A DNA stretch of 64,000 bases from positions 2,923-66,922 of the forward strand of contig CAJWGN010000001.1 in assembly GCA_913031035.1 (NCBI GenBank). The letters run 5' to 3'. A model generated the notes under the pieces. The model did no database searches. It saw only the letters and a list, made by a program, of their open reading frames with translations, and was not told where the DNA came from. The DNA comes from an uncultured Gammaproteobacteria bacterium. GTDB lineage: Bacteria; Pseudomonadota; Gammaproteobacteria; Pseudomonadales; Pseudohongiellaceae. Position 1 is the stretch's first letter. Every line of letters starts with the position of its first letter. This document shows positions 46,325-61,528 of this stretch, piece by piece. A program made the translations under genes and the position numbers.

Positions 46325-47728
46325 ATGATTATTAAGTGTAAACACCAATTTCTCTCGATAAGCTGTCTTTTAGCTACCCTGTTTTGTGGTAACGCTTTTG
46401 GGCAAGAAGAAGGTCGGGCGGAGGATGAAAGCGAATCTAAAAGTGAATCTGAAAGTATCGAACGGCCATTTAGACTGTATTTTATTGATAAGCCAATTGA
46501 AATTGATTCTAGCACTGATGACCGAGCTGTCTGGCCTATAACCAAAGCGGAAGTCATTTCCGAAGATGACCCTCAATTTATTCGGCGTATGGGCAGTATT
46601 CGTGAGTACACGGAGTCGGTTCAAGCAATAGAGTCAGAGGGGGGAGTCTGGGACAGGGGCCTAATCGAAGGTCTGGCAACCTTAGGGGAGCTCCAACAGC
46701 GTCAAGGCGACCATATTACAGCTATAAAGACTTTTGACCGGGTTGTTCACGTAAGCCGAATCAACAATGGGCTGCATACACTAGAGCAGATTCCTGCCTT
46801 AGAGCAGAAAATTGAAAGTTTTCTGGTATTGGGTGATTGGGAACAAGCGGACCTTTATTACAATTATATGTTTTACATCCAGCAAAAAGCCTATGGCAAC
46901 ACTGATCCTCGGATCATTCCAATGCTTGAGCGCTTGGCTCGCTGGAATCTCCGGGCTTTTAATATAGGTTTAGGGAAAAACCTAGGTGAGCGGCTTAACT
47001 CAGCTCAACTTTTATTTGATGCCGCTTCAAAAATGGTTGATGTCCATTTTGGCCGCTCTGATAAGCGCTACGTTGACTACCAACAAAGCATTGCAAACGC
47101 TTCTTATCTGGTGAGTCAGCACCCTGAGCTAATGAACGAAATGGAGAGGCCGGAGTTTCGTCTCAACCAAGACCAACTGCGGCGACGGTTGATAAGCTCT
47201 GAGCGATCGGCATCTCGAGGCTTTCAAGCAGGCGAGGAGGCACTTCTGAATATCCTCGCTCAACGACAAGTCGAAGATGGGCTATCGGTGCCTTTGGCCG
47301 AAGCGAATGCTAATTTAGGCGACTGGTATCTGATGTTTGGTCGGCGCAAAGCTGCTGTGCAGCAGTACGCTAGTGCTTGGCAGATTATTGCTGACTTGGA
47401 GGACCATCCGGAGCTTTTAGCAGAATTTTTTGGTCACGTAGTACCTCTGCCTTCTTTTCTCGACGCCCCCACCAGTTTAGTTTTTGCATCGGAGAAAGGA
47501 AAAGACACCAAGGAACTTGAAGTGGGTTTTGTGGATCTACGTTTTGATGTAACCGAAAACGGCGTTGTCCGAAATTTAGAAATAGTGAGTGGTGAAAGTG
47601 AAGAGAAAGCACTTATTTTGGGGAGACTGCAGCGGCAGGTTAGAAGTTCAGTGTTCCGGCCTATGCTTGAAGATGGGATTGCTATTAGGTCGATTGGCAA
47701 TCAGTTTCGATACCGGTATTGGTACTAA
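46325..47728 (+). CDS. Secreted TPR-like helical-repeat protein with a C-terminal TonB_C-like domain
   Basis: Has the signal peptide MIIKCKHQFLSISCLLATLFCGNAFG|Q and a helical-repeat middle region. The C-terminus VGFVDLRFDVTENGVVRNLEIVSGESEEKALILGRLQRQVRSSVFRPMLEDG follows the TonB C-terminal pattern (G.V.v.F.v...G.v.n..v.....). Confidence 0.5.
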   Translation: MIIKCKHQFLSISCLLATLFCGNAFGQEEGRAEDESESKSESESIERPFRLYFIDKPIEIDSSTDDRAVWPITKAEVISEDDPQFIRRMGSIREYTESVQAIESEGGVWDRGLIEGLATLGELQQRQGDHITAIKTFDRVVHVSRINNGLHTLEQIPALEQKIESFLVLGDWEQADLYYNYMFYIQQKAYGNTDPRIIPMLERLARWNLRAFNIGLGKNLGERLNSAQLLFDAASKMVDVHFGRSDKRYVDYQQSIANASYLVSQHPELMNEMERPEFRLNQDQLRRRLISSERSASRGFQAGEEALLNILAQRQVEDGLSVPLAEANANLGDWYLMFGRRKAAVQQYASAWQIIADLEDHPELLAEFFGHVVPLPSFLDAPTSLVFASEKGKDTKELEVGFVDLRFDVTENGVVRNLEIVSGESEEKALILGRLQRQVRSSVFRPMLEDGIAIRSIGNQFRYRYWY

Positions 47729-47947
47729 TGCACTGATATAAGGGTTAGCATTAATTGTTGTTTTTTATTCTGTTAAGACCCTGTTCAGCAGAGTTTTGAA
47801 ATACTGCAACGTGTAATCTGGCTACTATTTGCCAGTGCAATCTACTCGAAAATTATAGGTCGCTGTTCTCGTCAGATAGAGGCGTCCAAAATCATAAAAC
47901 GCTAATCAACTCTATGGGTTGTTAGTGCAGGCTTGGCGAAATAAATT

Positions 47948-49081
47948 ATGCAAAAATTAACGAATCAAATTCCACGTTTGGCCTTGTTAGCCGGCTTAAG
48001 TCTTGCGATTGTTGGTTGCCAGTCGAGCCAAAGCTCTAGCAGCTCTCCTCCTCCGCCTAGTCCGAGTTCCAGCTCGCCCTCAAGCCCGAGCCAATCGTCC
48101 CAATCTAGTAGCCAGAGTCAGTCTCAGAGTCAGTCGCAAAGCCAGAGTAGCTCTTCAGGATCTGCCGCCCAAACCCAAGGGGCAGGTCAGTCAGGCAGTT
48201 CGCAGGCGCAGGGCCAAGCTGGCACCTCTCAAGGGAGTGCGGGTGCGGGCAATACTTCTCCTGGTCAAAGTCAGGCTAATACCGCTGGCGCAGGTCAAGC
48301 CTCGGGTTCGTCTAGCTCTGGCGGGGGCGGTCAACAGCGAACCGTATCTTTCCCTCCGAGTATTGAAGGGTCTGGAGATACTCAAGGACAGGGTTCTGAG
48401 CAAGGGTCTCCAGAGGGCCAATCCGGGTCGAGCACAACGTCTGGTCAGGGTGCTGGTGGAGAATCACGTTTTCCAGGTGAGCAGGGCGGCTCAGGACAAG
48501 GACGAGATAGTTCGACTGGGGATTTAGGCAATGGACAAGGTGCCAGCAGTAGCGGTTCTGCTGGCAATTCAGGTCTTGGTAGGCCCCCTGGTGGGGATTA
48601 TAGTTTAGAAACCCTCCCAGAAGGCGTTGCAGGTGGCACAAGTGCCTCGGGAGGCAGTGGTGCTCTAACCAACGCTGAAAGAATTCAAGTTCTTGATGAG
48701 AGGCTTAGAAAAGGCTATGAAACCTTCGATGGCTATATTCTAAGTGAGCGTGAACGTGCTCAAAATGAAAGTAATGCTGCAGGTAGTTCAGCCCCAGGTG
48801 GTTCGGCAGGAGGAGGTGCTACAGGCGGCGCTCAAGGCCAGCCGCAAACACTTCCAGCAGAGGGTGAGACACCGAGTTCGGTGGCGACTTCGCAGAGACC
48901 AAACGCCAGCCAAGCTCCACCGGAAACGTTCCCAGCGCCAGATGACATTCCCAGTGGCAGAGATGATGATGTCGTTGCGAGGCAAATTCGCGAATTGGCT
49001 ATGAGCGAACCAGACCCGGAGTTGCGTGAAGCGATTTGGGATGAATATAGAAAATATACAGGTACTGGTGAAGGACAATGA
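47948..49081 (+). CDS. Lipoprotein with ~300 aa of S/G/Q/A low-complexity region and a small acidic helical C-terminal domain
   Basis: Has the lipobox LAIVG|C at residues ~19-24. The low-complexity region includes (SQ)6 encoded at 48107-48151. The C-terminus reads DDIPSGRDDDVVARQIRELAMSEPDPELREAIWDEYRKY. The stop overlaps the next start (ATGA). Confidence 0.6.
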   Translation: MQKLTNQIPRLALLAGLSLAIVGCQSSQSSSSSPPPPSPSSSSPSSPSQSSQSSSQSQSQSQSQSQSSSSGSAAQTQGAGQSGSSQAQGQAGTSQGSAGAGNTSPGQSQANTAGAGQASGSSSSGGGGQQRTVSFPPSIEGSGDTQGQGSEQGSPEGQSGSSTTSGQGAGGESRFPGEQGGSGQGRDSSTGDLGNGQGASSSGSAGNSGLGRPPGGDYSLETLPEGVAGGTSASGGSGALTNAERIQVLDERLRKGYETFDGYILSERERAQNESNAAGSSAPGGSAGGGATGGAQGQPQTLPAEGETPSSVATSQRPNASQAPPETFPAPDDIPSGRDDDVVARQIRELAMSEPDPELREAIWDEYRKYTGTGEGQ

Positions 49082-50262
49082 GAATTATGCTTAGAAATCT
49101 AACCACCCTTGTAACGGCCGCATTATTTTTAGTTTCTTGTGCAACACATACAGTTAAGTCGACTAGTTATACCCCGATTGTGCGGGATTCCCAAGATACG
49201 CCAGAATACTTACTGCTGGATGTTGGAGTAGCAGTCTTTGATCCTGGTTTAGATGAGATTAAAAAGAGCGAAGAAGACGTAACTAATCATGAAATTCGTG
49301 TAGCGGAGTCCCGCTATGCGCCGTTTTTACTTTCCGAAACACTTCAGCGATCCGCCAATTGGGGTATTGTGCGAGTCATGCCAAACCAAGAGAGCCCAAT
49401 GGATGTCTCCCTCAAAGGGACAATTCTCAGCTCCAATGGCGAGCAAATGGCGATTCGGATCGAAGTATCCGATTCCACCGGGCGGCAGTGGTATACAAAA
49501 GAGTATAAAGAAGAGGTTAGCAAATTCAGTTACGAGCCCAGTGAGCGCCAAAAAAATGATCCGTTCCAAGTTGTTTACAACACTATCGCGAACGATCTAC
49601 TCGAATACCGTAAGCGCAATTTAAAGAACGACGAGCTTACCGAAATCCGCACAGTGTCCGAAATGCTATTCGCCCAGAGATTCTCTCCTGATGTTTTTGG
49701 CCAGTACCTCATAAAAGATCAAAATGGAAACTTGCAAGTAGTTAGTTTGCCAGCGGAATCGGACCCACTCTTAGAAAGAGTGAGAGGAATTCGCGAACGT
49801 GATTTTATGTTTATTGATACCGTGCAGGATTACTACGCGACATACGTAAGACAAATGCGCTTACCTTATGATTCATGGCGTCAACAAAGCTATGAAGAAA
49901 CCATTGAAGTACGTGATTTGAAAAACTCTGCCCGGCGTCGATTTATTGCTGGTACGGCAGTTGTACTTGGCGGTTTAGCGGCGGCCTCTAGTGGCGGGAA
50001 TTACGCGACACAAACAGGTGGTGCTGTCGGGGTTGGAGCTGGCGCGGTTCTTATAAAAAGTGGATTCGATAAGCGGGCAGAAGCAAAAATTCACATGGAC
50101 GCTTTAGAAGAACTCGGTCAATCACTTGAAAATGAAGTCGCCCCAAGGGTTCTGGATTTAGATAATCGCAGTATTACATTAACCGGTTCCGTTGAAGAAC
50201 AATACGCGCAATGGAAAGAAGTGTTAGCAGATCTCTACGCAGCAGAAGTCGGCGGACCTTAG
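49078..50262 (+). CDS. Lipoprotein with a C-terminal Gly-zipper/hydrophobic segment
   Basis: Has the lipobox LFLVS|C and a later segment FIAGTAVVLGGLAAASSGGNYATQTGGAVGVGAGAVLI. An SD GAAGGA lies upstream. Confidence 0.6.
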   Translation: MRIMLRNLTTLVTAALFLVSCATHTVKSTSYTPIVRDSQDTPEYLLLDVGVAVFDPGLDEIKKSEEDVTNHEIRVAESRYAPFLLSETLQRSANWGIVRVMPNQESPMDVSLKGTILSSNGEQMAIRIEVSDSTGRQWYTKEYKEEVSKFSYEPSERQKNDPFQVVYNTIANDLLEYRKRNLKNDELTEIRTVSEMLFAQRFSPDVFGQYLIKDQNGNLQVVSLPAESDPLLERVRGIRERDFMFIDTVQDYYATYVRQMRLPYDSWRQQSYEETIEVRDLKNSARRRFIAGTAVVLGGLAAASSGGNYATQTGGAVGVGAGAVLIKSGFDKRAEAKIHMDALEELGQSLENEVAPRVLDLDNRSITLTGSVEEQYAQWKEVLADLYAAEVGGP

Positions 50263-50303
50263 ACGACCATAAGCAAACTTGATTCACCTGTGCAGTAACT
50301 AAT

Positions 50304-51830
50304 ATGTCTGATAAAAGAAGCGAAAGTGCTGACCTCGATCACGTCGATGACAATGCAGTATTTAAAACGGCTAGCCCTCAAGCTCAAATTGATAAGCCTC
50401 CAATAATTCTATGGCTTGGATTAGGTGGTTTATTGCTAGTGGCGTTATTGGTAGTTTTTGTCCTGCCAGTGCTGGTTACTGAATATGAGTTACCTTTAGA
50501 AAGGCGTGTTGATATTGCCGAGCTTGTGCCTTCACCAGCTTCCCAGCGAGAATTAGAAATATCCCCGTTTGAAGAAGCGCAGCGCTCTATTCAGAGAAAA
50601 AACGCACAAGACGTACTAGCCGAATTGCTGGAAATTCAAGGCGAGCTATCAGCCTTAGACGTTGTTGAATGGGGACAGCGTCAATTTGAAGAAGCGCTGT
50701 CTCAAGCAAGCACTGGCGATGAATATTATCGAAGCCAAGAATTTTTATTGGCAGTAGAAGTTTATGGGCTTGGGCGCGATACATTAGCGCAACTCAGAGA
50801 CTCTGTGCCAACGGTTATAGCTCAAACACTCATAGAAGCCGAGACTGCCTTCATAGCCGGTGATGCGTTGGTTGCAGAAGAAAAATATGCTTTGGCATTG
50901 CTTCTAGACGCATTTGATGAAGCTGCCCTAATTGGTTTAGAGCGCTCAAGAACATTAAGTGAGGTAGTTGATCTTTTAAACCAAACTGATGATCTGATCG
51001 AAGATGGCGGCCTCGAGCAAGCAAGAAACCTACTTGATCGCGTTATTAGTTTGGATGGTCGCAATTTAATTGCGCCGGCTAAAAAAACTGAAGTAGTCGC
51101 AATGATCCGCGAGCGAGAATTTTCTTCGATCATGTCTGCTGGTTATACAGCTTTAGAAACCGGCGACCCAGATGCAGCAATCACACAATTCGAAAATGCT
51201 GCGAACATGGGAATTAATCAAAACCAGGCGCTGGCGGCAATAACTCAAGCCGAAAATGAAATTGCAAACGCAGAAATAAATGTTCTTAGGCAGGCGATCG
51301 ACTCCGCCGAAAATGCCGAGCAATGGCAAGACGCCGTTGATAGCTATGACAAGGTTTTAATAATCGATTCAAATTTATCATTCGCAATTAATGGCAAGGA
51401 TTATGCTACTAAACGAGAAAGACTAAATTCCTTGTTGGTTGCAGCAAACAGTAATCCTCAGCGGCTTGCCGAAGATGACGTCTACCAGCAAACTATCGAT
51501 GTTTATTACACAGGCCGGGCTATCGATGAGCCAAGCTCAGTTTTGTCCACTCAACTCGATCTATTGGAAGGATATTTAGAAAACTCTCAGATACCAATTA
51601 ACGTCCAATTTATATCTGACAATTTGACCGATGTAACACTTCTTAGAATTGAACACGTCGGACTTTTTGAGCAGCAGAAAATGTCACTCAAGCCAGGTAA
51701 CTACGTAGCCGTTGGAAAGCGGTCCGGATACAGAGAGGTTAGAAAGGAATTTGTCGTGGGATTTGATCAAACTCCAAGCTTAGTCATAGTGCAATGTGAC
51801 GAGCCTATAGCTCCCAGCAATAGGCGATAA
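50304..51830 (+). CDS. Single-pass membrane protein with a periplasmic TPR-like region and a PEGA-like C-terminal beta domain
   Basis: Has the TM segment IILWLGLGGLLLVALLVVFVLPVLV after an acidic N-terminus. A long alanine/glutamate-rich helical-repeat region follows. The C-terminus reads LKPGNYVAVGKRSGYREVRKEFVVG. Confidence 0.55.
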   Translation: MSDKRSESADLDHVDDNAVFKTASPQAQIDKPPIILWLGLGGLLLVALLVVFVLPVLVTEYELPLERRVDIAELVPSPASQRELEISPFEEAQRSIQRKNAQDVLAELLEIQGELSALDVVEWGQRQFEEALSQASTGDEYYRSQEFLLAVEVYGLGRDTLAQLRDSVPTVIAQTLIEAETAFIAGDALVAEEKYALALLLDAFDEAALIGLERSRTLSEVVDLLNQTDDLIEDGGLEQARNLLDRVISLDGRNLIAPAKKTEVVAMIREREFSSIMSAGYTALETGDPDAAITQFENAANMGINQNQALAAITQAENEIANAEINVLRQAIDSAENAEQWQDAVDSYDKVLIIDSNLSFAINGKDYATKRERLNSLLVAANSNPQRLAEDDVYQQTIDVYYTGRAIDEPSSVLSTQLDLLEGYLENSQIPINVQFISDNLTDVTLLRIEHVGLFEQQKMSLKPGNYVAVGKRSGYREVRKEFVVGFDQTPSLVIVQCDEPIAPSNRR

Positions 51831-51832
51831 CG

Positions 51833-53911
51833 ATGGATAACCCTAACGTTAAGAATGAGCCAAACGGCTCTAACGACCCAATAGTACCAATAGATTTTAC
51901 ACCTAATGAAAATAAGGCAGCCCGTGTTTCGTTTAAGCTGAAACCTATTCATTTTATTCTGGCCGCATTTTTCAGTATTTCAGGGTTTGCCGCTTGGTTT
52001 GTATTGACGGCGAAATCTGTTTCCATCGAAGCGAATCCAGTTACCGCTGTAGTTGAAATTAGCGGTGGCTTAAAATTCAAGTTGGGGCCACGTTATTTAA
52101 TTCGCTCAGGCCGCTACGATATTAAATTAGTAAACGAGGGTTATCACGATAGCGAATCTATATTGGTGGTTAGTTCAGATCAGACTCAGACCCACCTTTA
52201 TGAAATGCAGAAGCTTCCGGGGATCTTAAGTTTCGCTACTAAGGATCTAATCGCCGCTAGGGTGCAAGTCGATGGCATAGACCTCGGTGAGACGCCATTA
52301 ATGTCTATATTGGTTGAGGCCGGCGAGAGGCAGCTAACCGTATCAAAGGACCGTTACCTAGACTTTGCGCAGACAATCTTAGTGGAGGGGCGGTCGGTAG
52401 AGCAAAGCTTCGAGGCTCAATTAGAGCCTGCCTGGGCAACCGTCAGCTTGACGACAAGTCCTGCTGGAGCCGACGTCATAGTGGATGGCGAACTTATTGG
52501 TACTACTCCTATGAATGCGAAAATCATTCAAGGCCAGCGCGACCTCACCCTGAAGCTCGCAGGGCATAAGGCATGGCAAGAAGATTTTGGTATTTTTGCG
52601 GGAGAAGATTTTGTTATTCCTGATATAGAATTGGAGCCGGCAGATGGACTAGTCTTCATTCAGTCCTCACCATCGTCAGCCTCGGTGACTATAGGAGGAG
52701 AGTTTAAGGGTTTAACGCCACTTGAGGTTTCCTTGGCTCCGGACATTGATCACGAAATCACCTTTTTTAAAAATGGATACAACTCAAGTAAACGCAGCAT
52801 TAGAACTCAGGCCAATCAAGAAAGTGGGGTCAGTGTTAGCTTGGATCCTGTGCTGGCTAATGTTCAGGTAATTAGTCAGCCTGAAGATGCGCAGCTTTAT
52901 GTTAATGGAGAGCTTCGTGGTCTCGCAAATCAAACGCTTGAGCTAATAGCAGCAAGTCAACAAATCGAAGTACGTAAGGCAGGCTATGTCCCTTTTACAG
53001 CGGAATTCACCTCAAGACCTGGCCTGGATCAGGTAATCCGAGTCAGTCTTAAGTCTCTAGAGCAGGCCCGACTTGACCAGATCGAACCGGTTATTAGTAA
53101 CGCTGCTGGTCAGTCGCTTAAACTTTTCTATCCATCCGCTTTTACAATGGGGGCATCTCGCCGTGAAGCCGGTCGCAGGTCAAATGAAAACCTGCGAGAG
53201 ATAAAGTTGGAACGACCATTTTATATAAGCTATAAAGAAGTGACCAACGCTGAATTCAGACTGTTCGATAGCGAGCATTCCTCTGGTATTTTACAGGGTT
53301 TGAGCTTAAACAATGAGGCTCAGCCCGTGGTTAGACTCAGTTGGACACAGGCCGCGCTTTTCTCTAACTGGCTCAGCGAGCAAGAGTCTATTGAGCCTTT
53401 TTACGATGTTTTAGACGGCGACGTTGTTGGTTATAACTCAGAATCTACCGGTTACAGGATGCCCTCTGAAGCTGAATGGGCATGGGCCGCAAGGGCTGAT
53501 GGTAGCGGAAATCTCTTGAAATATCCGTGGGGCACACAGCTGCCTCCGCCAGACAACGCTGGAAACTTTGCAGATATTACGGCGAGAAATTATCTGGGAG
53601 AGGTCATGTTTGATTACGAAGATGGCTATTTGGCAACGGCTCCGGTGGCATCCTTTACTGCTAACCAAAATGATCTGTTTGACATGGCAGGTAATGTTTC
53701 GGAATGGGTTCATGACTACTACGGTTCAGTTGGATCAGCCAATGGCGCTGAAGTTGACCCGCTGGGTTCTGTAAACGGTCAGTTTCACACAATTCGCGGC
53801 TCTAGCTGGGCTCATGGTTCTGTTTCTGAGATACGGCTATCGTTTAGAGATTTCGGTGAAGAGCCACGAGACGATGTTGGATTTAGAATCGCTAGGTATT
53901 TAGAGGAGTGA
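51833..53911 (+). CDS. Membrane-anchored protein with 5 PEGA-like repeats and a C-terminal FGE-sulfatase (SUMF1/PvdO-like) domain lacking the catalytic cysteines
   Basis: Has the TM segment IHFILAAFFSISGFAAWFVLTA and PEGA-type repeats (VDGIDLGETPL, VDGELIGTTPM, IGGEFKGLTPL, VNGELRGLANQ ...). FGE-fold blocks are PVVRLSWTQAALFSNWLS, GYRMPSEAEWAWAAR, GNVSEWVHDYY, IRGSSWAH and VGFRIARY. Confidence 0.8.
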   Translation: MDNPNVKNEPNGSNDPIVPIDFTPNENKAARVSFKLKPIHFILAAFFSISGFAAWFVLTAKSVSIEANPVTAVVEISGGLKFKLGPRYLIRSGRYDIKLVNEGYHDSESILVVSSDQTQTHLYEMQKLPGILSFATKDLIAARVQVDGIDLGETPLMSILVEAGERQLTVSKDRYLDFAQTILVEGRSVEQSFEAQLEPAWATVSLTTSPAGADVIVDGELIGTTPMNAKIIQGQRDLTLKLAGHKAWQEDFGIFAGEDFVIPDIELEPADGLVFIQSSPSSASVTIGGEFKGLTPLEVSLAPDIDHEITFFKNGYNSSKRSIRTQANQESGVSVSLDPVLANVQVISQPEDAQLYVNGELRGLANQTLELIAASQQIEVRKAGYVPFTAEFTSRPGLDQVIRVSLKSLEQARLDQIEPVISNAAGQSLKLFYPSAFTMGASRREAGRRSNENLREIKLERPFYISYKEVTNAEFRLFDSEHSSGILQGLSLNNEAQPVVRLSWTQAALFSNWLSEQESIEPFYDVLDGDVVGYNSESTGYRMPSEAEWAWAARADGSGNLLKYPWGTQLPPPDNAGNFADITARNYLGEVMFDYEDGYLATAPVASFTANQNDLFDMAGNVSEWVHDYYGSVGSANGAEVDPLGSVNGQFHTIRGSSWAHGSVSEIRLSFRDFGEEPRDDVGFRIARYLEE

Positions 53912-55050: not shown

Positions 55051-56409
55051 ATGAGTTTAAAAATAATAGAACTTAACGACGCAGGGATAAAAGTTGGGGA
55101 CCATGGTGGCATCGTCGCTCATAGTCCTGGTTTTGCTCTGGTGGTTGGTAGCGAGCTTTTATTGGGTGAGCGTGCAGAGAAGCAAGCGCGCTTACAGCCG
55201 ACTAAAAGCTATAATAAATACTGGTATGAACTCAGTATGGAACCCTTAAATCACGGCAATCATCTCAGGCATACAGCGGATATAGCGTTTGCCCATCTTT
55301 TGCATCTCGCCGAAATAGGAGAAATTGAGTCTGATGTTCTTCTTGCCGTACCGGGAAGTTTTAGTTCTCAGCAGCTAGCGATACTTTTGGGGTTAGCGAA
55401 GCAAAGCCCTATCAATCCGATAGGCGTAGTCGACTCAGGTCTTGTTGCTGGGATTGCCGCTGGGATTTGTGAATCCTCTTTATTTATCGACTTGCAACTC
55501 CATCAGATTGTTGTAACCAAACTTAACTTCAGCAATGGCCTTTTAACCTCTGAATCAGTTGTTCAAATCCCAGGTGTGGGCAGTCAGAATTTCATTAATT
55601 TGATGATGCAGAAAGCTACCGACTCCTTTATTGAACAATGCCGTTTTAATCCTCAGCATAATGCTGAGTATGAGCAGCTTCTCTATAGCCAGTTGCCGCT
55701 TTGGCTCAGCCAATACGATGATTCTCAGACTAATTTAATGTTGGAGCTCAAAACTAGTGATGCCTTGCACGTTGCGAAAATGCCTAAGGAAGGTCTTATC
55801 GCTAGTTTGCAAAGTCACTATAAGAAAATCAACCAAGAGCTTGAACCCTTGCTTAGCGATCAATACTCTACTCTTATTCTTAATAAAGGCTTGGCATCAT
55901 TGCCCGGCTATATGGCTAGTTTACCTGAGTTCAAATCCATCAAAGTTTTGCAAGGCCATGAGATAATTGAAGCCTGCCTGGACCATGTAGATAGAATAGT
56001 GACGCCGGGAGAGGAAATTCATTTAGTAAGATCTCTTCCTGTTGCCGGCGGATCGAATTCAACCGGTGCTCATGGACAAATTGAATTAGACGGCGGTGAG
56101 GCACCTACCCATCTCGTTTATCGTAGCAGAGCTGTGGCGCTTGGGGATATTCAAATTCGTAATCCTGACAATGAAAAAGACGGCTCAGGGACCAGCTCCA
56201 AAACAATCAATATCTCAGCGGGCGATTTGCCGACCTTGCTTGGAGAGACTCATGTTAATAGCTCAGGCGCTTTTATTGAGAGCGGTGAACTTGAGTTTTA
56301 TTTGAATTCAAAACCGGTAAAAGGGCTACAGAAAATTTCTCTCGGCGACCAGATTCAATTCGGCATACAAGGTGATGTATTGACCGCAATTCAGGTGCAA
56401 AATGTCTAG
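55051..56409 (+). CDS. Cytoplasmic Hsp70/actin-fold (ASKHA-like) protein with degenerate nucleotide-binding motifs and a C-terminal FHA-like beta region
   Basis: There is no signal peptide or TM segment. [42 protein letters not shown] parallels Hsp70 [51 protein letters not shown] and [16 protein letters not shown] sit where GIDLGTT and DLGGGTFDVS are expected. Confidence 0.45.
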   Translation: [452 protein letters not shown]

Positions 56410-57499
56410 AAAGTCGAGACGTAGAATATCCACTCCCTTGAGCCTTGCCTTCTTGGATGTGATGTTTTGCGGCTTTGGTGCGGTAATTCTAATTTTCCTT
56501 ATTATGGATCACTCGAGTATCACCGCCAAAAACGATGCTAATCCGAGTTTGGCAGCCGAAATTAATCTTCTAGAGGAAGAAGTGTTAGAAGGAGAGCTTG
56601 GCTTGGTGAGAGTGCGTAATACGCTTTCTGATACTTCCTTCGAAGTTGTTGAAGCTCAGGGTCTCGCGCGACAGGTTCAAGATCAAATTGACACCTTTCT
56701 ACAAGAGCTGGCATCGATGGAAAACTCCAGTATCGCCAGTGTCGAGAGTATTGAAAAACTACGGTCGGACATTAAGGCCCTTGAAGAAGAACTATTGAGA
56801 CTGCAGGCTAGCGCTTTTGAGCAAGAAGGTAATAATGTTAGGCAGTACATTGGTGACGGTAATCGACAATATTTGTCTGGGTTCTTCTTAGGAGGGCAGC
56901 GGATTCTAATTTTGGTAGACAGCTCCACTAGTATGCTGGATAGCACGCTAATTAACATTATCAGAACTCGAAACTTGTCAGATGAGCGGAAAAGGCAGGC
57001 GCCAAAGTGGCGTCGTGTAGTCAAAACTATCGATTGGATAAGCACTCAGCTGCCTGTAACCAGCCGCTATCAAATTTGGTCCTTTAGCAACAGCTACACA
57101 AGTGCCATCCCGGGAAGCGAAGCGCGGTGGTTGGAAGTGGCTGACCGAGATCAGTTAAACCAAGCAATTATCAATATTGGCGATACGATCCCCAACAATG
57201 GCACAAATATGGAACAGGTATTTCGCGGGGTCGCCAATATGAATCCGCCCCCGGACAATATATTTCTTATAACCGACGGTCTACCAACGCTAGACGATCG
57301 TGGTGATCCTAATGGGCTGGTTACTCCGAATCAGCGTGCAGAGCTGTTTGAAAATGCTGTCACTGAGTTACCTAGAGGAATACCGGTAAATGTTATTCTA
57401 ATGCCTCTGGAAGGTGATCCTTCTGCCTCTGCAGTGTTTTGGGAACTGGCTCAGGTTTCGAAAGGGTCCTATTTGACCCCTTCTAAAGATTGGCCTTAG
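56402..57499 (+). CDS. TolR/ExbD-like TM anchor - coiled coil - periplasmic vWA (MIDAS) domain protein, paralogue 1
   Basis: The N-terminus MSRKSRRRISTPLSLAFLDVMFCGFGAVILIFLIM resembles TolR ..NIVPLLDVLLVLLLIFM, with the conserved Asp. A heptad-rich ~100 aa follows. vWA motifs are ILILVDSSTSM (DxSxS) and IFLITDGLPT. It overlaps the upstream gene by 8 nt. Confidence 0.7.
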   Translation: MSRKSRRRISTPLSLAFLDVMFCGFGAVILIFLIMDHSSITAKNDANPSLAAEINLLEEEVLEGELGLVRVRNTLSDTSFEVVEAQGLARQVQDQIDTFLQELASMENSSIASVESIEKLRSDIKALEEELLRLQASAFEQEGNNVRQYIGDGNRQYLSGFFLGGQRILILVDSSTSMLDSTLINIIRTRNLSDERKRQAPKWRRVVKTIDWISTQLPVTSRYQIWSFSNSYTSAIPGSEARWLEVADRDQLNQAIINIGDTIPNNGTNMEQVFRGVANMNPPPDNIFLITDGLPTLDDRGDPNGLVTPNQRAELFENAVTELPRGIPVNVILMPLEGDPSASAVFWELAQVSKGSYLTPSKDWP

Positions 57500-57597: not shown

Positions 57598-58602
57598 ATG
57601 AGACGTAGAGACCGCGAATCTGATTCCTTTACGGTGTCTTTTTTGGACGTGGCGTCCTGTGGTTTCGGGGCGATGATAATCTTGTTGATAATCACCAAGA
57701 TTAATGACCCAGTGACTTTGGAAATAGTCGATGTCCCGCCGGAGGGCAGAGTTATCGAACTGCAAGAATCTTTGTTTGCGATTCGGGGCGAAACCACAAT
57801 ACTGAATCGTGAACTCAACGCAAAGCATGAGCAACTGTCTGCACTCACCGATAGAGTCGCACGGCTACGCCGAGATCTAAATGACATCGAGGGGCGTTAT
57901 CAGACAACAACTGAGCTGTCCGACGAAACCACCGATGAAGCCGGCAAGCTGGCGATTGCTCAGCAATCCTTAACTGACGAAATGCAGCGCCTGCTGGCAA
58001 ATAGCCCAGCAGCAGAGAACAACGCCGTTGGCGGTGTGCCTGTGGATAGCGAATATATTATTTTTATTATCGATACATCAGGCAGTATGTTTAATAATCC
58101 TAGTTGGAATAAAATGCTGGGTGTGATCGACAATACTCTTGATGTATATCCCGAAGTTAAGGGGATTCAGATAATGAACGATATGGGAGACTATATGTTC
58201 AATTCCTACGCTGGCAAGTGGATGCCAGATACGCCTTCCACCCGAAGCCGAATTATCTCCACGCTTCGGAATTGGCAACCTTACAGTAATAGCAGCCCTG
58301 TAGAAGGTGTAACCCGGGCTATCAATACATTCTATTCCCCCGATAAGAAAATCAGCATTTACGTCCTTGGAGACGATTTTCAGCCAGGGGGCTCTATTCG
58401 CAATGTGCTTCAAACCATAGATAGAATCAATGTAGAAGACGCCAATGGGAATAGGCTAGTCAGAATTCATGGGATTGGTTTCCCGGTCATTTTCGACTTT
58501 CCGCAGCGCTTCAGACAGAGTGTTTATCGCTATGCCACGTTAATGCGCGAGATGACGTCACGAAATGGTGGTACATTTGTAGGTCTCAACGACTTCAGAT
58601 AG
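57598..58602 (+). CDS. TolR/ExbD-like TM anchor - coiled coil - periplasmic vWA (MIDAS) domain protein, paralogue 2
   Basis: The N-terminus MRRRDRESDSFTVSFLDVASCGFGAMIILLIIT is followed by a coiled-coil-like segment. vWA motifs are IIFIIDTSGSM (DxSxS) and ...LMREMTSRNGGTFVGL. An SD GAGGAG lies upstream. Confidence 0.7.
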   Translation: MRRRDRESDSFTVSFLDVASCGFGAMIILLIITKINDPVTLEIVDVPPEGRVIELQESLFAIRGETTILNRELNAKHEQLSALTDRVARLRRDLNDIEGRYQTTTELSDETTDEAGKLAIAQQSLTDEMQRLLANSPAAENNAVGGVPVDSEYIIFIIDTSGSMFNNPSWNKMLGVIDNTLDVYPEVKGIQIMNDMGDYMFNSYAGKWMPDTPSTRSRIISTLRNWQPYSNSSPVEGVTRAINTFYSPDKKISIYVLGDDFQPGGSIRNVLQTIDRINVEDANGNRLVRIHGIGFPVIFDFPQRFRQSVYRYATLMREMTSRNGGTFVGLNDFR

Positions 58603-58665
58603 CTTTGCTTGGACGTTTCAGTACCCTTAGCGTTTGGTTTTGAGTTCAATTGAGTCAAAAGGATA

Positions 58666-59274
58666 ATGAATAAACACTTAAGTAAAATCGTTCTAGTACC
58701 CATGATCGTTCTTTTTCTAGGGAACTGTGGTGTAAATAACGTGGTGATAGAAGGGCAGTTTCCTACGCCCAATATTAGCAAAATGCCTGTCTATGTAGCG
58801 GTGATCTACGACCAAGCTTTGAGGGATTTTTCTTACCTTGAATACACTGAAACAGGATCCGAAGAATTTAATATCCAAAGCGGTGCCTCTCACGTGGAGT
58901 TGTTTAATTCGATAACACCGGCGATGTTTGAGCAGGTAATTTTTGTCGACACCTTAGAAGAAGCTCAAATCGCTGGAGTCGATGCAATATTCGCCCCTGC
59001 TATTGAGGAGTTTCAACTGGCGCTGCCAGCGAAAACAAAGCTGGACGTCTATGAAGTGTGGATAAAATATAATATGCGACTTCTCACCGCTCAAGGAGAC
59101 TACATCGCTGACTGGGTTTTGACGTCCTACGGCAAGACACCAACCGAATCATTTCAAACGGTAGAAGGGGCAATTAATGATGCGGCTGTGATCGCCTTAA
59201 GAGACCTTGCCTCCAGCTTTTCGCTAAGTTTTAGCGATGTACCTGAAGTCCGAGATTGGCTGGATCAGCAATAA
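58666..59274 (+). CDS. Lipoprotein, unknown family (202 aa)
   Basis: Has the lipobox LFLGN|C and an SD AAAGGA upstream. Confidence 0.6.
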   Translation: MNKHLSKIVLVPMIVLFLGNCGVNNVVIEGQFPTPNISKMPVYVAVIYDQALRDFSYLEYTETGSEEFNIQSGASHVELFNSITPAMFEQVIFVDTLEEAQIAGVDAIFAPAIEEFQLALPAKTKLDVYEVWIKYNMRLLTAQGDYIADWVLTSYGKTPTESFQTVEGAINDAAVIALRDLASSFSLSFSDVPEVRDWLDQQ

Positions 59275-59302
59275 AGCTGATAACCAGTTAAGAGAGTCAA
59301 AA

Positions 59303-59980
59303 ATGAATCCTAATCCTATTTTTAAAGAAGGCCGCTTCAAATTTTTGTTGTTGATGGCGTTAAGCTTTGTAGTTTCTTGCACTAGCACTACAGTTGATGA
59401 GTTTAGGCAGGGTGAAACTGGAATCAGCGATGATGAAACCGTCGTTGTTCTTGGCCGACGTCAAGCCAGCGACTATGAAACGAGGTCAGAGTTTATTGAA
59501 TGCGTGGGCGATAAAATGGCTCGGGGGGACAACGCGCTCAATATTATTCCTGAACAAGAGTTTATAGATGCTATGTTTCCCTGGTTTGAGCCTCGCACTG
59601 CGCCACTCAGAACTCAAGACTTAGCTAAGCTAATGTCAGAAGATGTGGTGGCAGATAAAATGGGTGAATTTGGCATTCGTTATATTGTCTGGGTCGATGG
59701 TTTTACTGAGACATCAGGAAGAACGGGATCAATATCTTGTACTGTTGGGCCAGGCGGAGCTGGATGCTTTGGCTTTGGTACTTGGGAAGACGATGCCAAT
59801 TTTGACGCTAGAATATGGGACGTTGGCTCATTCACCAATGTTGGGACCATCAATACCGATGCGTCGGGCCAATCATATTTGCCGGCATTGGTTATTCCAA
59901 TACCTCTAATTGCTCGAGTGGAAGCGAACGCTTGTTCGCGGCTGGCAGATCAGCTTAAAGGATTTGTTAATGGCAGCTAG
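59303..59980 (+). CDS. Lipoprotein, unknown family (225 aa)
   Basis: Has the lipobox SFVVS|C after MNPNPIFKEGRFKFLLLMAL. The start was chosen at ATG 59303; the track ORF begins at 59237 inside the upstream gene. Confidence 0.6.
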   Translation: MNPNPIFKEGRFKFLLLMALSFVVSCTSTTVDEFRQGETGISDDETVVVLGRRQASDYETRSEFIECVGDKMARGDNALNIIPEQEFIDAMFPWFEPRTAPLRTQDLAKLMSEDVVADKMGEFGIRYIVWVDGFTETSGRTGSISCTVGPGGAGCFGFGTWEDDANFDARIWDVGSFTNVGTINTDASGQSYLPALVIPIPLIARVEANACSRLADQLKGFVNGS

Positions 59981-60013
59981 CTGCCCATTCAATGAAGAAA
60001 TTCAGGTGTCATC

Positions 60014-61528
60014 ATGACTAGTTTGTATAACTTAATTTCACATATCATCACGCCGTACGCTTTAGTAAATCAGCTTCCTAGAAGACTTCTTTTGTGTGCT
60101 CTATTTTCCTCGATGGTGCTGTCTTGTTCAGTAAACCCAGCAACCGGAGGCGCTAATTTAGTATTAATGACTGAGAAAAAAGAAAAAAGAATCGGTCAGG
60201 AGGAACATGAAAAAGTACTCGCTAGCATGCCGTTATTTGAGGATGAGGAATTACTAATATATGTACGTATGGTCGGAAACAAAGTGGCTAATGTTAGCCA
60301 TCGACCTAATCTAGAATATACATTCAATATAATTGATAGTCCTGAAATCAATGCTTTCGCCTTACCTGGCGGATATGTCTATGTAAACCGCGGCCTACTT
60401 ACTTTCATGAACACAGAAGCTGATTTAGCAGCTGTACTTGCTCACGAGATTGGTCATATCACGGCACGCCATGGCGTGCAACAGCAAGCAAGAGGAACGC
60501 TGGCAAGAACAGCAGCTCAAGTAGGTGGGGTGGTGACAGCTGTAGCTACTGGAAGTGGGTATGTTGGCTCGCAAATCAGTGAAGTTGCTTCCATATGGGC
60601 ACAAACAGGATTGAGTGGGTTTGGTAGGGAGCATGAACTCGAAGCAGATAGTCTAGGTGCAGAATATATCAAAGAGGCTGGGTACGATCCCGCTGCTATG
60701 ATTAATGTTGTCACCGTTTTAAAAAATCAGGAAGATTTTAGCAAACGCGTCAATAATGGAGGTGGGGGCTACCATGGATTATTTGCTACCCATCCCCGTA
60801 ATGATACTCGATTACAAGAAGCCATCGCGGCGGTTGCCAGTTTAGATAATGATGAAATTCGAAAATTAGACAATACTGAATTTAGAGAAAATATAAACGG
60901 GTTGATAATTGGCGCTAGCCAAGCTTCCCAAACGCAAGATGCGCGAAATCGATACTATCAAGCACTGTTGGGTTATACATTGTTATTTCCTGATGATTGG
61001 CAGGTTTCAGAGACTACCACTACAGTGATCGCGAGCAATGAAAGTGTCGGCAATATGAAGATTGAAACCCAGCGCCTTCAGGATAACGTAGACCCACGTG
61101 TCTTTTTAAGAGATACGGTTGGTATTAGTAACCTACAAAAATCTGAATCGTTAGTTCAATACCGACTTCAAGGACATACAGGAACAAACCTTTTGGAAAA
61201 TGGAAACACCGAAAGAGTCGCGGTGATTTACTTAGGTCCTCGTGCTTTCGTTTTTCGAGGTGAAATTACTGACCAATCATCAAGCGACGAAATTGACGAT
61301 CTCCTGCTTTCTACAATCAGGACATTTAGATCAATTCAGAGAGGTGAAGTCGTAGCAGGGACAGAGTTAAAACTAAAATATGTTCAAGCGAGCGAGTTCT
61401 TTGACTTTGCTGTAGTGGCTCAAAGTAGCAAAATAGCGAACTATCCGGAAGAAACTCTACGGCTCTTAAATGGCTACTATCCTGCCGGCAGCCCGGAAGA
61501 AGGTGAGTGGATCAAGTTGATAGAGTAG
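60014..61528 (+). CDS. M48 family zinc metallopeptidase lipoprotein with a C-terminal domain of unknown function
   Basis: Has the lipobox SMVLS|C. It also has INAFALPGGYVYVNRGLL, the HEXXH motif LAHEIGHITARH and a downstream E (GREHELEAD). Confidence 0.85.
   Translation: MTSLYNLISHIITPYALVNQLPRRLLLCALFSSMVLSCSVNPATGGANLVLMTEKKEKRIGQEEHEKVLASMPLFEDEELLIYVRMVGNKVANVSHRPNLEYTFNIIDSPEINAFALPGGYVYVNRGLLTFMNTEADLAAVLAHEIGHITARHGVQQQARGTLARTAAQVGGVVTAVATGSGYVGSQISEVASIWAQTGLSGFGREHELEADSLGAEYIKEAGYDPAAMINVVTVLKNQEDFSKRVNNGGGGYHGLFATHPRNDTRLQEAIAAVASLDNDEIRKLDNTEFRENINGLIIGASQASQTQDARNRYYQALLGYTLLFPDDWQVSETTTTVIASNESVGNMKIETQRLQDNVDPRVFLRDTVGISNLQKSESLVQYRLQGHTGTNLLENGNTERVAVIYLGPRAFVFRGEITDQSSSDEIDDLLLSTIRTFRSIQRGEVVAGTELKLKYVQASEFFDFAVVAQSSKIANYPEETLRLLNGYYPAGSPEEGEWIKLIE

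Follow-up and report, generated by a model that had tools for sequence, protein, structure and literature searches.

The 13 consecutive + strand genes at 46325-61528 (g1 to g13) are fairly likely to encode an uncharacterised machine that spans the envelope and is driven by an ion-powered motor of the 5:2 type, whose stoichiometry, rotation and ion coupling we infer. They lie within a 64,000-nucleotide stretch of DNA (the window) from an uncultured gammaproteobacterium of the Pseudohongiellaceae. The TolQ/ExbB-type channel gene g7 is always encoded together with the single-pass paralogues g9 and g10, and no tolR, exbD or motB gene is present. Genes g2-g10 are the core of the system, with g8 as an accessory member inside it, and g1 and g11-g13 are an extension found in some lineages. 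An earlier note on this DNA had proposed a candidate PMF-coupled trans-envelope system centred on a MotA/ExbB-type channel. Both the PF01618 match of g7 and the synteny described below support such a system, which is dedicated and conserved and whose PMF coupling is probable.

Organisation of the gene cluster and export signals

The cluster had been described as 14 open reading frames; the ORF listing gives 13, as do gene calls made independently on metagenome contigs that are nearly identical. Genes g2 and g3 share a 4-nt ATGA overlap (49078/49081), g8 and g9 overlap by 8 nt (56402/56409), and gaps of 2 nt occur at 51830/51833, 53911/53914 (TGATGATG) and 55048/55051. The remaining gaps are of 41, 61, 98, 63, 28 and 33 nt, and the sole long spacer covers 219 nt (47729-47947); the junctions and the single long gap reported earlier were thus all confirmed on recheck. 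Neither a consensus scan nor a search for inverted repeats in the three longest spacers revealed a convincing intergenic terminator, terminator-like matches being weak or within coding sequence (e.g., 57489-57504, with a poor T tract), in agreement with the previous reading that no hairpin terminator lies inside the cluster. We infer an operon structure for this tightly packed, co-directional cluster.

Signal peptides were found in g1 and g6, lipoboxes in g2 (IVGC), g3 (LVSC), g12 (VVSC) and g13 (VLSC), an atypical lipobox (LGNC), whose Cys is invariant in the family, in g11, and one N-terminal transmembrane anchor in each of g4, g5, g9 and g10, while g7 is polytopic. Twelve products are thus exported or reside in a membrane, and g8 alone of the 13 seems to be cytoplasmic. 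The signals are as the earlier note described them, and its count of 13 out of 14 becomes 12 out of 13. The lipoproteins are assumed, from the +2 residue rule, to be sorted to the outer membrane.

A TolQ/ExbB-type channel with two vWA partners

The g7 product (54242..55048, 268 aa, three transmembrane segments) is a core TolQ/ExbB-type proton-channel subunit, matching PF01618 at 9.9e-15 (54.9 bits, Pfam cutoff 22.9). Its scores against the TolQ, ExbB and MotA equivalog models are all far under the cutoffs. The channel threonines T189 (GFLGTVRGIG, nt 54794-54823) and T222 (AFNST, nt 54893-54907) are each at least 90% conserved among 39 diverse homologues. This subunit is presumed to form a pentameric stator.

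Its two partners, g9 (56402..57499) and g10 (57598..58602), are core proteins with the same layout, namely a trans-pore helix and two periplasmic parts, a coiled coil of ~90 residues and a vWA domain, and would serve as axle subunits 1 and 2. They are paralogues (BLASTP 9e-8). The N-terminal helix of g9 is ExbD/TolR-like and carries Asp19 (FLDVMFCGFGA, nt 56450-56482), that of g10 carries Asp17 (FLDVASCGFGA, nt 57640-57672), and the likeness of both to the E. coli ExbD/TolR helices rests on the motif (F/L)(I/L)DV, the helices being too short for statistics. The metal-ion-dependent adhesion site (MIDAS) is complete in both proteins (DSSTS, nt 56918-56932, in g9; DTSGS, nt 58072-58086, in g10). 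Residues D19, D173, S175, S177, T268 and D292 of g9 are each at least 90% conserved, and in g10, over 99 sequences of at most 50% redundancy, D17 reaches 93% and D159, S161 and S163 reach 98% each. The g9 domain falls just under the Pfam VWA_2 cutoff (1.2e-5, 26.3 bits against 27). For g10, whose family comprises 1138 representatives at 50% clustering, the top Foldseek matches of the AF2 model are vWA domains (4fx5 at 1e-7, ITIH1, CLCA1, BatB). Its long helix (residues 49-134) is the coiled coil, and the family profile matches only coiled coils in the PDB, over residues 28-151; the AF2 monomer is of low confidence over the transmembrane helix and stalk (pLDDT 34-65). ExbD, TolR and MotB domains were absent from all 13 products according to Pfam and NCBIfam models. 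Paralogy, residue conservation and the AF2/Foldseek results together support the earlier proposal of Asp-bearing single-pass partners with coiled-coil and vWA regions in place of TolR or OmpA-like domains.

Periplasmic, lipoprotein and cytoplasmic components of the core

Two core proteins are anchored in the inner membrane. The g4 product (50304..51830, anchor at residues 40-58) is a periplasmic TPR protein, although its TPR matches are weak; faint TPR families were also detected on the Haliea orthologue, and visual inspection suggests a likeness to PEGA in a beta segment at its C-terminus (LxPGxYxxxGxRxGYR). The g5 product (51833..53911, anchor at residues 41-59) combines four PEGA repeats with a C-terminal FGE/PorK-like lectin-fold domain (residues 437-688, nt 53141-53896), with Pfam matches to PEGA at 3.1e-43 (four stretches) and to FGE-sulfatase at 1.8e-36. 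Its PDB matches include FGEs and PorK, and its score against the GldK/PorK model is 102.5 bits, far under the cutoff of 350. Both catalytic Cys of the Streptomyces coelicolor FGE are missing (RGGSYlCHDSYcNRYR versus RGSSW-AHGSV-SEIR), and no Cys is conserved among 39 homologues. An FGE-fold protein that is PEGA-fused, inner-membrane-anchored and non-catalytic, as previously suggested, is thus corroborated by the Pfam matches, the transmembrane call and the unmatched catalytic Cys.

The core also comprises two lipoproteins and one small secreted product. The g2 lipoprotein (47948..49081) has no Pfam or NCBIfam match; its family, aligned by eye, shows a lipobox, then a variable linker, which here is long, disordered and Ser/Gly/Gln-rich, then an invariant acidic C-terminal motif (DDDVVARQIRELAMSEPDPELREAIWDEYRKYTG, nt 48962-49063; consensus DDD(I/V)VARQLREAA...). 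Conservation is confined to the C-terminal ~48 aa (57-70% identity), a segment found immediately 5' of g3 in almost every distant locus. The g3 lipoprotein (49078..50262, 394 aa) contains a Gly-zipper-like hydrophobic segment (residues 289-330, nt 49942-50067); a 39-sequence profile gave no PDB match, and the sole Pfam match was a weak C19orf12-like one in 3 of the 39 members. The g6 product (53914..54180) is a small acidic secreted protein of 88 aa that ends in a conserved motif (RFIPTEEISQDLGVSFPANI, nt 54118-54177). In the distant loci inspected, gene calls have a small ORF at the same place. The motif F.P(S/T)E.IS.D..V.FPVDI-COOH occurs in the majority of the 37 loci listed.

The accessory g8 product (55051..56409, 452 aa) has no Pfam, NCBIfam or PDB sequence match. 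Its AF2 model (pLDDT 80.6) displays an Hsp70 nucleotide-binding-domain-like fold over residues 1-330, followed by a beta-rich C-terminal domain, and the top 50 Foldseek matches are all nucleotide-binding domains of Hsp70, DnaK or Hsp110 (E ~1e-14 to 1e-15); AF2 and Foldseek thus agree with the Hsp70 fold claimed earlier. The phosphate loops are degenerate (ELNDAG, nt 55069-55086; DLQLHQ, nt 55489-55506) and these non-canonical loops are invariant; judged by eye from the replaced motifs, ATPase activity has probably been lost. The gene is present in 42 of 54 loci holding g7 and g9; neither the Woeseia-labelled locus nor the one in which g10 bears Desulfobulbaceae names contains it. The N-terminal tails of g4, g5, g7, g9 and g10 pointed to no partner of g8 when their lengths in loci that have this gene were compared with those in loci that lack it.

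Conservation and extent of the system

All 13 genes stand in this order in 80 species-level genomes, and the nine-gene core g2-g10 is likewise collinear in loci whose flanks are unrelated and whose GC content spans 38-72%, which argues for more than a chance juxtaposition. Among the named sources of the core are Pseudohongiellaceae, Halieaceae isolates (Haliea, Parahaliea, Kineobactrum), Woeseiaceae and Desulfobulbaceae. Eight to nine genes are shared across these sources, from Pseudomonadota and Desulfobacterota, and two or more families share 12-13 genes, so that the neighbourhood search proposed in the earlier note came out in its favour. Counted around the g10 vWA protein (83 loci, 32-79% identity), co-occurrence was 68/68 for g9, 46/47 for the TolQ-like g7, 37/37 for the PEGA-FGE protein g5, 32/33 for g4 and, among loci with sufficient flank, 30/30 for g3. 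The flanking hydantoinase and TfpB genes (0 and 2/27, respectively) are outside the system, and no further recurrent neighbour family was found around the g10 loci. The cluster does not appear to be mobile, since no plasmid or phage homologues were found.

The remaining genes had been thought to complete the set; g1 and g11-g13 are instead lineage-specific additions outside the core. The g1 product (46325..47728, 467 aa) is a secreted TPR protein (TPR_12 at 1.5e-7). Its proposed TonB_C-like module, at residues ~391-462, is only suggestive: TonB_C matched at 0.059, and in three of eight members of the family (6e-4 at best), and the family profile matched about ten PDB chains of TonB C-terminal domains at E 0.045-1.5, again at these residues. 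Outside the family, g1 lies upstream in only 4 of 25 loci, and downstream on the opposite strand in 5 of 33. The lipoprotein-like g11 (58666..59274, 202 aa), with an invariant Cys21 (family consensus LxGCG), has no meaningful Pfam match; it comes after g10 in 28 of 66 loci, Haliea sp. E17 included. The g12 lipoprotein (59303..59980, 225 aa; 18/52 loci) has no Pfam or PDB match and five invariant Cys, that of the lipobox (C26) and C67, C146, C155 and C211. Finally, g13 (60014..61528, 504 aa) is an M48 zinc metalloprotease lipoprotein (Peptidase_M48 at 6e-38; HEIGH, nt 60443-60457; EHELEAD, nt 60629-60649), scoring 132.7 bits against the BepA model (cutoff 570), with a C-terminal domain of ~230 aa. 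It is present in 11 of 43 loci, including Haliea sp. E17.

Relation to published work and proposed mechanism

Pentamers of TolQ-like subunits whose "trans-pore helix" partners are paired vWA proteins have already been predicted (PMC12204202, Mol Biol Evol 2025, section 8, Fig. 4c-d). That study described a tolQ-like gene with a heterologous vWA pair bearing an Asp in the trans-pore helix, tolR and exbD being absent, and an AF3 model in which the Asp of the paired helices sits in the Thr ring of the TolQ-like pentamer; this model lends our reading support from an independent side. The likeness of the present cluster to this family lies in the features described for it rather than in homology of sequence to its exemplar from Idiomarina loihiensis. 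Because the motor core had thus been predicted, the term "undescribed" used earlier is only partly right: that no characterised system has this composition holds experimentally, but not for the motor core at the computational level. No description of the function, or of the conserved parts beyond the motor core, among them g2 and g6 with their invariant acidic C-terminal motifs, was found in the literature searched.

From a mechanistic point of view, a g9-g10 heterodimer would be ringed by five g7 subunits, and proton flow at the Asp/Thr site would turn or pull the coiled-coil stalk. The MIDAS sites of the two vWA heads may then grip acidic ligands farther out in the envelope and pass force to partners at the level of the peptidoglycan or outer membrane, a transmission that we liken to those of TonB and TolA. 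Our preferred candidates for these ligands are the acidic C-terminal motif of g2, held on its long disordered lipoprotein tether, and the C-terminal motif of g6. Proteins g4 and g5 would constitute a periplasmic frame, comparable with the PorK/N ring of type IX secretion except for its anchorage in the inner membrane, and g8 may regulate or scaffold the motor from the cytoplasm instead of working as a chaperone ATPase. As the conservation of the cluster is chromosomal, syntenic and single-copy-like, with no effectors, adhesins or barrels, we favour a role of this machine in the maintenance or remodelling of the outer membrane or envelope.

Organization of the Cluster

The region 46325-61528 (+) was found to hold 13 consecutive genes, and not the 14 claimed in the earlier note, both in the ORF listing and in independent gene calls on near-identical metagenome contigs. 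These genes, all on the + strand and referred to here as g1 to g13, start at 46325 (g1, a TPR protein), 47948 and 49078 (g2 and g3, lipoproteins), 50304 (g4, an anchored TPR protein), 51833 (g5, a PEGA-FGE protein), 53914 (g6, a small secreted protein), 54242 (g7, a TolQ/ExbB-type channel protein), 55051 (g8, resembling an Hsp70 nucleotide-binding domain), 56402 and 57598 (g9 and g10, paralogous proteins with an Asp-bearing helix, a coiled coil and a vWA domain), and 58666, 59303 and 60014 (g11, g12 and g13, lipoproteins). The tight packing that had been read from the sequence alone was borne out at each junction, namely the ATGA overlap at 49078/49081, the 2-nt gaps at 51830/51833, 53911/53914 and 55048/55051, and the overlap at 56402/56409, which measures 8 nt. 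The remaining intergenic gaps are 28-98 nt long, with a single gap of 219 nt located 3' of g1. Signal peptides, lipoboxes and single transmembrane anchors were likewise all found where they had been placed, and every product except g8 is an envelope protein. The lipobox of g11 is atypical (LGNC), yet its cysteine is invariant across the g11 family. The longest ORF of g12 begins at 59237 (59237-59980) and overlaps g11 by 38 nt, and the internal ATG at 59303 (225 aa) is favoured by external gene calls and by the lipoprotein signal.

The claim that the cluster contains no internal terminator also held, as a consensus scan of the region gave no convincing intergenic one, nor did a search for inverted repeats in the three longest spacers. 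Over positions 44000-63900 of the window, the consensus scan returned 29 terminator-like sites, where shuffled sequence gave 19.2 ± 4.0; nearly all of them lie within coding sequence, on either strand, and there is no strong intergenic one. The base-composition profile showed no island-like anomaly, and Rfam, run on the whole 64-kb window (1-64000), gave no family at the gathering score.

Conservation of the Cluster and Its Borders

A genome scan seeded with g8 yielded 80 species-level genomes, all with the 13 genes in order, whose names are limited to Pseudohongiella, Pseudohongiellaceae and unclassified gammaproteobacterial MAGs, a limit set by the pattern step of the scan. The hydantoinase and TfpB genes that flank the cluster are also retained in most of these genomes and, as these flanks are syntenic within Pseudohongiellaceae too, the scan indicates family synteny and not functional linkage. 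A search with g10 over 1.8 billion 50%-identity representatives returned 1138 of them, including 287 at E<=1e-30; identity in the full-length matches went as low as 33%. In four contexts of g10 relatives at 33-40% identity, the flanks are unrelated and the gene string is the same, i.e., a lipoprotein of ~440 aa (g3 homologue), a g4-like protein of ~480 aa, PEGA-FGE, a small ORF, MotA_ExbB, in some cases the Hsp70-like gene, and two vWA genes; tblastn confirmed the homologies in these contexts. Another 80 loci came from scanning metagenomes with an alignment of 46 g10 sequences.

Co-occurrence with g10, scored only in loci with enough flank, was observed for g9 in 68/68 loci, g5 in 37/37, g3 in 30/30, g7 in 46/47 and g4 in 32/33, while g8 was present in 42 of 54. 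For g11, g12 and g13, the corresponding counts were 28 of 66, 18 of 52 and 11 of 43 loci, and TfpB accompanied g10 in 2 of 27 and the hydantoinase in none. All-against-all ORF clustering across these loci gave no additional recurrent neighbour. The isolate Haliea sp. E17 carries g2-g13 complete and in order, with a different downstream flank. Names on the g10 clusters include Haliea, Parahaliea, Kineobactrum, Halioglobus, Woeseia/Woeseiaceae, "Deltaproteobacteria" and Desulfobulbaceae/Desulfobacteraceae, and the GC content of the loci ranges from 38 to 72%. The genes g2-g10, g8 being an accessory among them, make up a conserved core that occurs under the names of no fewer than two phyla, and several gammaproteobacterial lineages have in addition an extension formed by g11-g13 and g1. 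The borders drawn in the earlier note were right.

The genes could also have come together by chance from unrelated operons or, in a milder form of this view, g1 and g11-g13 could be independent neighbours of a smaller core. In line with this, a promoter-like site (47829-47856) lies inside the 219-nt spacer after g1, g1 and g11-g13 are missing from many distant loci, and the hydantoinase and TfpB flanks are syntenic in Pseudohongiellaceae as well, so that family-level synteny alone proves nothing. However, the conserved neighbourhood for which a search had been proposed does exist, since the order g2-g10 is kept with unrelated flanks under names from at least two phyla, and the locus of Haliea sp. 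E17, like certain others devoid of TfpB and hydantoinase, has g11, g12 and g13 in a row after g10. For the core, chance juxtaposition is excluded; for g11-g13 it is unlikely, and as a general explanation it is very improbable.

Directly downstream of the cluster, the gene at 61702-63495 (+) encodes a TfpB-type type IV pilus assembly ATPase (919.9 bits, cutoff 850) with an MshEN domain, which is followed on near-identical contigs by two GT9 heptosyltransferase genes and then by a GT4 gene. It is syntenic within the family and unlinked to the cluster elsewhere. Just upstream, at 44109-46121 (+), stands a lone hydantoinase/oxoprolinase A-type gene (Hydantoinase_A, 1e-89), syntenic only within Pseudohongiellaceae; the next gene is g1, so that no B-subunit gene follows. 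Two divergent loci have neighbours of their own. Adjoining a very divergent core, the stretch 11681-16227 of locus L087 holds two large genes (427 and 1088 aa) with ATPase_2/AAA_16 and TPR matches, not seen in the other loci. At 11328-15721 and 17392-20289 of locus L089, a divergent core is followed by genes for a TPR-GGDEF protein and a chemoreceptor and, further downstream on the opposite strand, for a 7TMR-DISM GGDEF-EAL protein, a possible hint of regulation by c-di-GMP or chemosensing in this lineage.

Channel and vWA Proteins

The channel protein g7 matched PF01618 (MotA/TolQ/ExbB) with 54.9 bits, for a gathering score of 22.9, and fell below every equivalog cutoff of NCBIfam (TolQ 27.1 vs 221, ExbB 24.1 vs 135, MotA 16 vs 340), the best equivalog models being TolQ (3e-6) and ExbB (3e-5). 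A sequence/profile search of the PDB with g7 gave nothing useful. Its motifs GFxGTVRGIG (T189) and AFNST (T222) are at least 90% conserved among 39 sequences, and we take these two residues to be the pore threonines that face the Asp of ExbD/TolR, equivalent to T148 and T181 of ExbB. The genes of g9 and g10, paralogues with 22% identity (BLASTP 9e-8), are located 1.4-2.5 kb downstream of g7 in the same gene string. In g9, a VWA_2 match (1.2e-5) stands just under the cutoff, and Asp19 and the residues D173, S175, S177, T268 and D292 of the metal-ion-dependent adhesion site (MIDAS) are each at least 90% conserved in 40 relatives. In 99 relatives of g10, Asp17 of the N-terminal helix is 93% conserved and the MIDAS residues D159, S161 and S163 are each 98% conserved. 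The C-terminal domain of g10 adopts a vWA fold, vWA domains being the top Foldseek matches of its AF2 model, and residues ~49-134 form a long helix in this model, with PDB profile matches to coiled coils only. The helix motif (F/L)(I/L)DV(M/L) resembles PFIDVML of ExbD and PLLDVLL of TolR of E. coli, over a segment too short for statistics. Pfam and NCBIfam detected no ExbD, TolR or MotB domain in any of the 13 products, and assigned no family to g2, g3, g6, g8, g10, g11 and g12.

Such a channel may point to a divergent Tol-Pal or Ton paralogue, involved in outer-membrane constriction or stabilisation, or in energising TonB-dependent uptake. The best equivalog models of g7 are in line with this, as are the TPR proteins (of which CpoB is the example in Tol-Pal), the lipoproteins, and g1, which may carry a TonB_C-like domain; indeed, g1 combines TPR with a sub-threshold TonB_C match in Pfam, and its TonB_C-like signals are weak but repeated. 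Tol-Pal and Ton share with the cluster the channel family and the TPR and lipoprotein accessories, and would also share an Asp helix in the pore and a periplasm-spanning element that carries force to outer-membrane partners. By contrast, the equivalog scores are far under the cutoffs (TolQ 27 vs 221), the periplasmic domain of TolR/ExbD is lacking, and neither TolA, TolB, Pal nor a TonB-dependent receptor was found in or adjoining the cluster, i.e., among the 13 products and the recurrent neighbours. Moreover, g1 has a cleavable signal peptide instead of the membrane anchor typical of TonB/TolA, and it stands outside the conserved core. As TolR, TolA, TolB, Pal, ExbD and the receptors are missing, a Tol/Ton paralogue was rejected as improbable. 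Unlike in Tol-Pal and Ton, the putative axle and the force transducer would be here one and the same polypeptide, comprising helix, coiled coil and vWA domain.

Alternatively, g9 and g10 may not be motor subunits at all, but membrane vWA proteins similar to BatA/BatB, with g7 acting alone or with some other partner. The g10 vWA domain does match BatB (3ibs) structurally, among others, and the Bat operon also combines transmembrane vWA proteins with TPR proteins, BatA-E resembling the cluster by their paired, membrane-anchored vWA proteins with TPR partners. However, MoxR and DUF58, which belong to this aerotolerance operon, have no gene in the cluster or among its recurrent neighbours, and we know of no Bat operon with a MotA/TolQ/ExbB channel. 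Conservation of the helix Asp at 93% in g10 and at least 90% in g9 would be unusual for a passive anchor, g9/g10 occur with g7 in 46 of 47 loci in which no alternative Asp-bearing partner appears, and the AF3 model described in section 8 of PMC12204202 puts the helices of such proteins in the pore. The conserved Asp and the strict co-occurrence with g7 make a Bat-like nature of g9 and g10 quite unlikely.

A weak ZorA match on g7 (E 0.0035) would be compatible with a Zorya-like anti-phage defence, where effectors are coupled to a sensor resembling MotAB. This defence function was rejected: the PADLOC scan of ten products gave weak ZorA and weak LmuB matches only, and beyond these no match to ZorB, ZorC, ZorD, a nuclease or another PADLOC family. 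Within Pseudohongiellaceae, the cluster occupies a fixed chromosomal position in the 80 species-level genomes, g10 had no tblastn match in plasmids and phages, and the products other than g8 belong to the envelope, all of which leaves defence hardly credible. Absence from plasmids and phages, lack of a defence signature and fixed chromosomal position lead us to argue for a role in envelope housekeeping or remodelling.

Putative Frame, Hsp70-Like Protein and Lipoproteins

The g5 product (start 51833) contains four PEGA repeats and an FGE-sulfatase domain according to Pfam, and its anchor is a transmembrane helix with no lipobox. Its C-terminal ~190 aa only matched the GldK/PorK model (102.5 bits, 1e-29, cutoff 350), and its C-terminus matched PorK structures. 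When aligned to the Streptomyces FGE 2q17, the catalytic Cys is replaced by Ala in one case and by a gap in the other, and no Cys is conserved among 39 homologues. On the evidence of its sequence, the FGE-like domain, with both catalytic cysteines missing, is not a catalytic FGE.

The match to GldK/PorK and to PorK structures suggests a gliding, adhesion or type-IX-like secretion apparatus, in which g5 would act as PorK/GldK and the vWA heads as substrate or surface adhesins, like CglB in Agl-Glt, the gliding machine of Myxococcus. PorKLMN/GldKLMN also associates a PMF motor with a non-catalytic FGE-fold protein (PorL/GldL, to our knowledge, is not a PF01618 protein). TonB_C-like and TPR proteins are likewise found in Agl-Glt. 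Agl-Glt is also reported to pair a TolQR-type motor with a vWA protein, the outer-membrane adhesin CglB. By contrast, the vWA domains studied here are fused to an inner-membrane motor helix, whereas CglB is a lipoprotein adhesin of the outer membrane and the Agl-Glt motor contains the ordinary TolR-like AglQ/S. Unlike PorK, an outer-membrane lipoprotein, g5 is not lipidated but anchored in the inner membrane, and bears the PEGA repeats; its GldK score is far from the cutoff. No homologue of PorL, PorM, PorN or SprA was found, and no beta-barrel (including the Glt barrel proteins of Agl-Glt), cargo or adhesin gene recurs near the cluster. Such an apparatus was rejected as unlikely, given the missing PorL, PorM, PorN, barrels and cargo and a g5 that is not a lipoprotein.

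The g4 product (start 50304) showed weak TPR matches in Pfam. The Hsp70 fold previously read in g8 (start 55051) was confirmed by an AlphaFold2 model (pLDDT 80.6) and Foldseek, in the absence of any Pfam, NCBIfam or PDB sequence match: the best 50 Foldseek matches were all nucleotide-binding domains of Hsp70, DnaK or Hsp110 (E ~1e-14 to 1e-15), and the target-normalised TM-score was 0.6-0.7 for many Hsp70 nucleotide-binding domains. In the model, the C-terminal domain is short and beta-rich, and there is no Hsp70 substrate-binding domain. The sequences of the phosphate loops are ELNDAG and DLQLHQ, conserved in that form; they depart from what we take to be the canonical Hsp70 loops, DLGTT and DLGGGT. 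This replacement makes canonical ATPase activity of g8 unlikely, as judged from sequence. The g8 gene sits between the channel gene g7 and the vWA genes g9/g10, and a comparison of loci with and without g8 gave no hint of its partner, the N-terminal tail and the protein lengths of g4, g5, g7, g9 and g10 showing no difference between the two.

The genes g2 (47948-49081) and g6 (start 53914) are two overlooked members of the core, of which g6 could pass for a dispensable small ORF. The g2 family consists of lipoproteins with a variable Ser/Gly-rich linker, and conservation is confined to the last ~48 residues (57-70% identity), with the near-invariant C-terminal motif DDD(I/V)VARQLREAAxxExDPxLRExLWxEYRKYK. 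The g6 proteins have a signal peptide and an acidic disordered stretch in most of the loci listed, and in most of these the extreme C-terminus, F.P(S/T)E.IS.D..V.FPVDI-COOH, is conserved. The Ser/Gln-rich linker of g2 includes a 12-nt tandem repeat, especially at 48113-48135, with in-frame indels among close relatives (L002:2150-3500; L007:2800-4050) and, on one near-identical metagenome contig, a coinciding run of N that marks an assembly gap. The length of this linker thus appears to be polymorphic and hard to assemble.

Among the other lipoproteins, g13 matched PF01435 (Peptidase_M48) at 6e-38, with HEIGH and EHELEAD, i.e., HExxH and the downstream Glu, intact, and scored 132.7 on the BepA equivalog, for a cutoff of 570. 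In the PDB, sequence/profile searches with g3 and g12 gave nothing useful, and no meaningful Pfam match came from any family member of g3, g11 or g12. In several high-GC lineages (L120, L128, L144, L151, L155 and L168), a g1-like TPR gene is found on the minus strand ~2-3 kb past the g10 homologue, after a g11-like gene, while in the window g1 is upstream and on the same strand, the g1 family thus staying near the system in two arrangements.

Relation to a Published Family of Predicted vWA Motors

A family of TolQ-like pentamers with paired vWA partners has been predicted (Mol Biol Evol 2025, PMC12204202). The TMH-tethered vWA proteins presented there (section 8, Fig. 4c-d) are proteins, mostly in heterologous pairs, that are tightly linked to tolQ homologues without tolR/exbD and carry a TolR/ExbD-like trans-pore helix with a conserved Asp, which AlphaFold3 models place in the threonine ring of the pentamer. 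The paper reports the family mainly in Proteobacteria and Verrucomicrobia, from an Idiomarina loihiensis seed, with its function unknown. Here too, a tolQ-like gene (g7) is linked to vWA genes without tolR, exbD or motB, the vWA pair is heterologous (g9/g10, both in 68/68 loci), the N-terminal helix bears an Asp (D17 of g10, 93%; D19 of g9, at least 90%), the channel threonines and the C-terminal vWA fold are conserved, and the host is proteobacterial, this likeness being judged by described features, as the paper gives no Idiomarina sequence or accession. As all the published features are present here, the motor core was already predicted in print.

The proposal of an undescribed system was accordingly only partly right: it fails for the motor core, and stands for the rest of the conserved composition, which has no description in the literature searched. 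Indeed, the words PEGA, FGE and Hsp70 are absent from the text of PMC12204202, its section 8 does not mention lipoproteins, a small secreted protein or an M48 protease, and the Hsp70-like gene between channel and vWA genes is a feature of the present cluster. Literature searches for the domain combination gave no description beyond this paper, and in the literature searched no member of the cluster has been studied experimentally. The vWA conflict systems described in eLife in 2020 (PMC7159879) are not the same system, having no MotA component and other partners. A study of MotAB evolution (mBio 2025) makes no mention of vWA partners.

Proposed Mechanism

The existence and conservation of the cluster are established, it lends itself to a mechanistic interpretation, and it is probably one of the 5:2 motor-driven trans-envelope systems. 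From a mechanistic point of view, five g7 subunits would surround a g9-g10 heterodimer, and proton flow would result in movement of the coiled-coil stalk. The two vWA heads may hold acidic ligands through their MIDAS and so pass force outward, the C-terminal motifs of g2 and g6 being purely hypothetical candidates for these ligands. The g4 and g5 proteins would form a periplasmic frame anchored in the inner membrane, and g3, with g11 and g12 where present, would be lipoproteins of the outer-membrane side, assuming the usual sorting rule. The g13 protease may process some component, and g8 may serve as a cytoplasmic scaffold or regulator. We tentatively propose, as a real possibility that we nevertheless rate below even, that the cluster encodes a distinct class of 5:2 envelope machine, in which a rotating heterodimeric vWA/MIDAS axle grips the acidic C-terminal motifs of g2, a tethered outer-membrane lipoprotein, and of g6, inside an inner-membrane-anchored PEGA/FGE-lectin frame, and drives a not-yet-known envelope process. 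Such a class, if true, would stand beside the flagellar stator, Ton, Tol, Agl-Glt, GldLM and Zorya.

Significance

Ion-driven 5:2 motors are the general way for diderm bacteria to deliver energy to the outer membrane, and every class that came to be understood (Ton, Tol, GldLM, Zorya) has started a field of its own. The cluster gives a complete list of the conserved parts of a putative further class, of which only the channel and the vWA partners had previously been predicted. With 1138 clusters at 50% identity, the g10 family is large and common in abundant marine groups, and the system is found widely among marine Gammaproteobacteria and reaches Desulfobacterota. As it is carried by cultured Halieaceae isolates, the hypotheses are directly testable by genetics, pull-downs and cryo-ET. 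If it is true that the vWA heads pass force via a metal-dependent grip on short acidic motifs, this would constitute a new principle of trans-envelope coupling.
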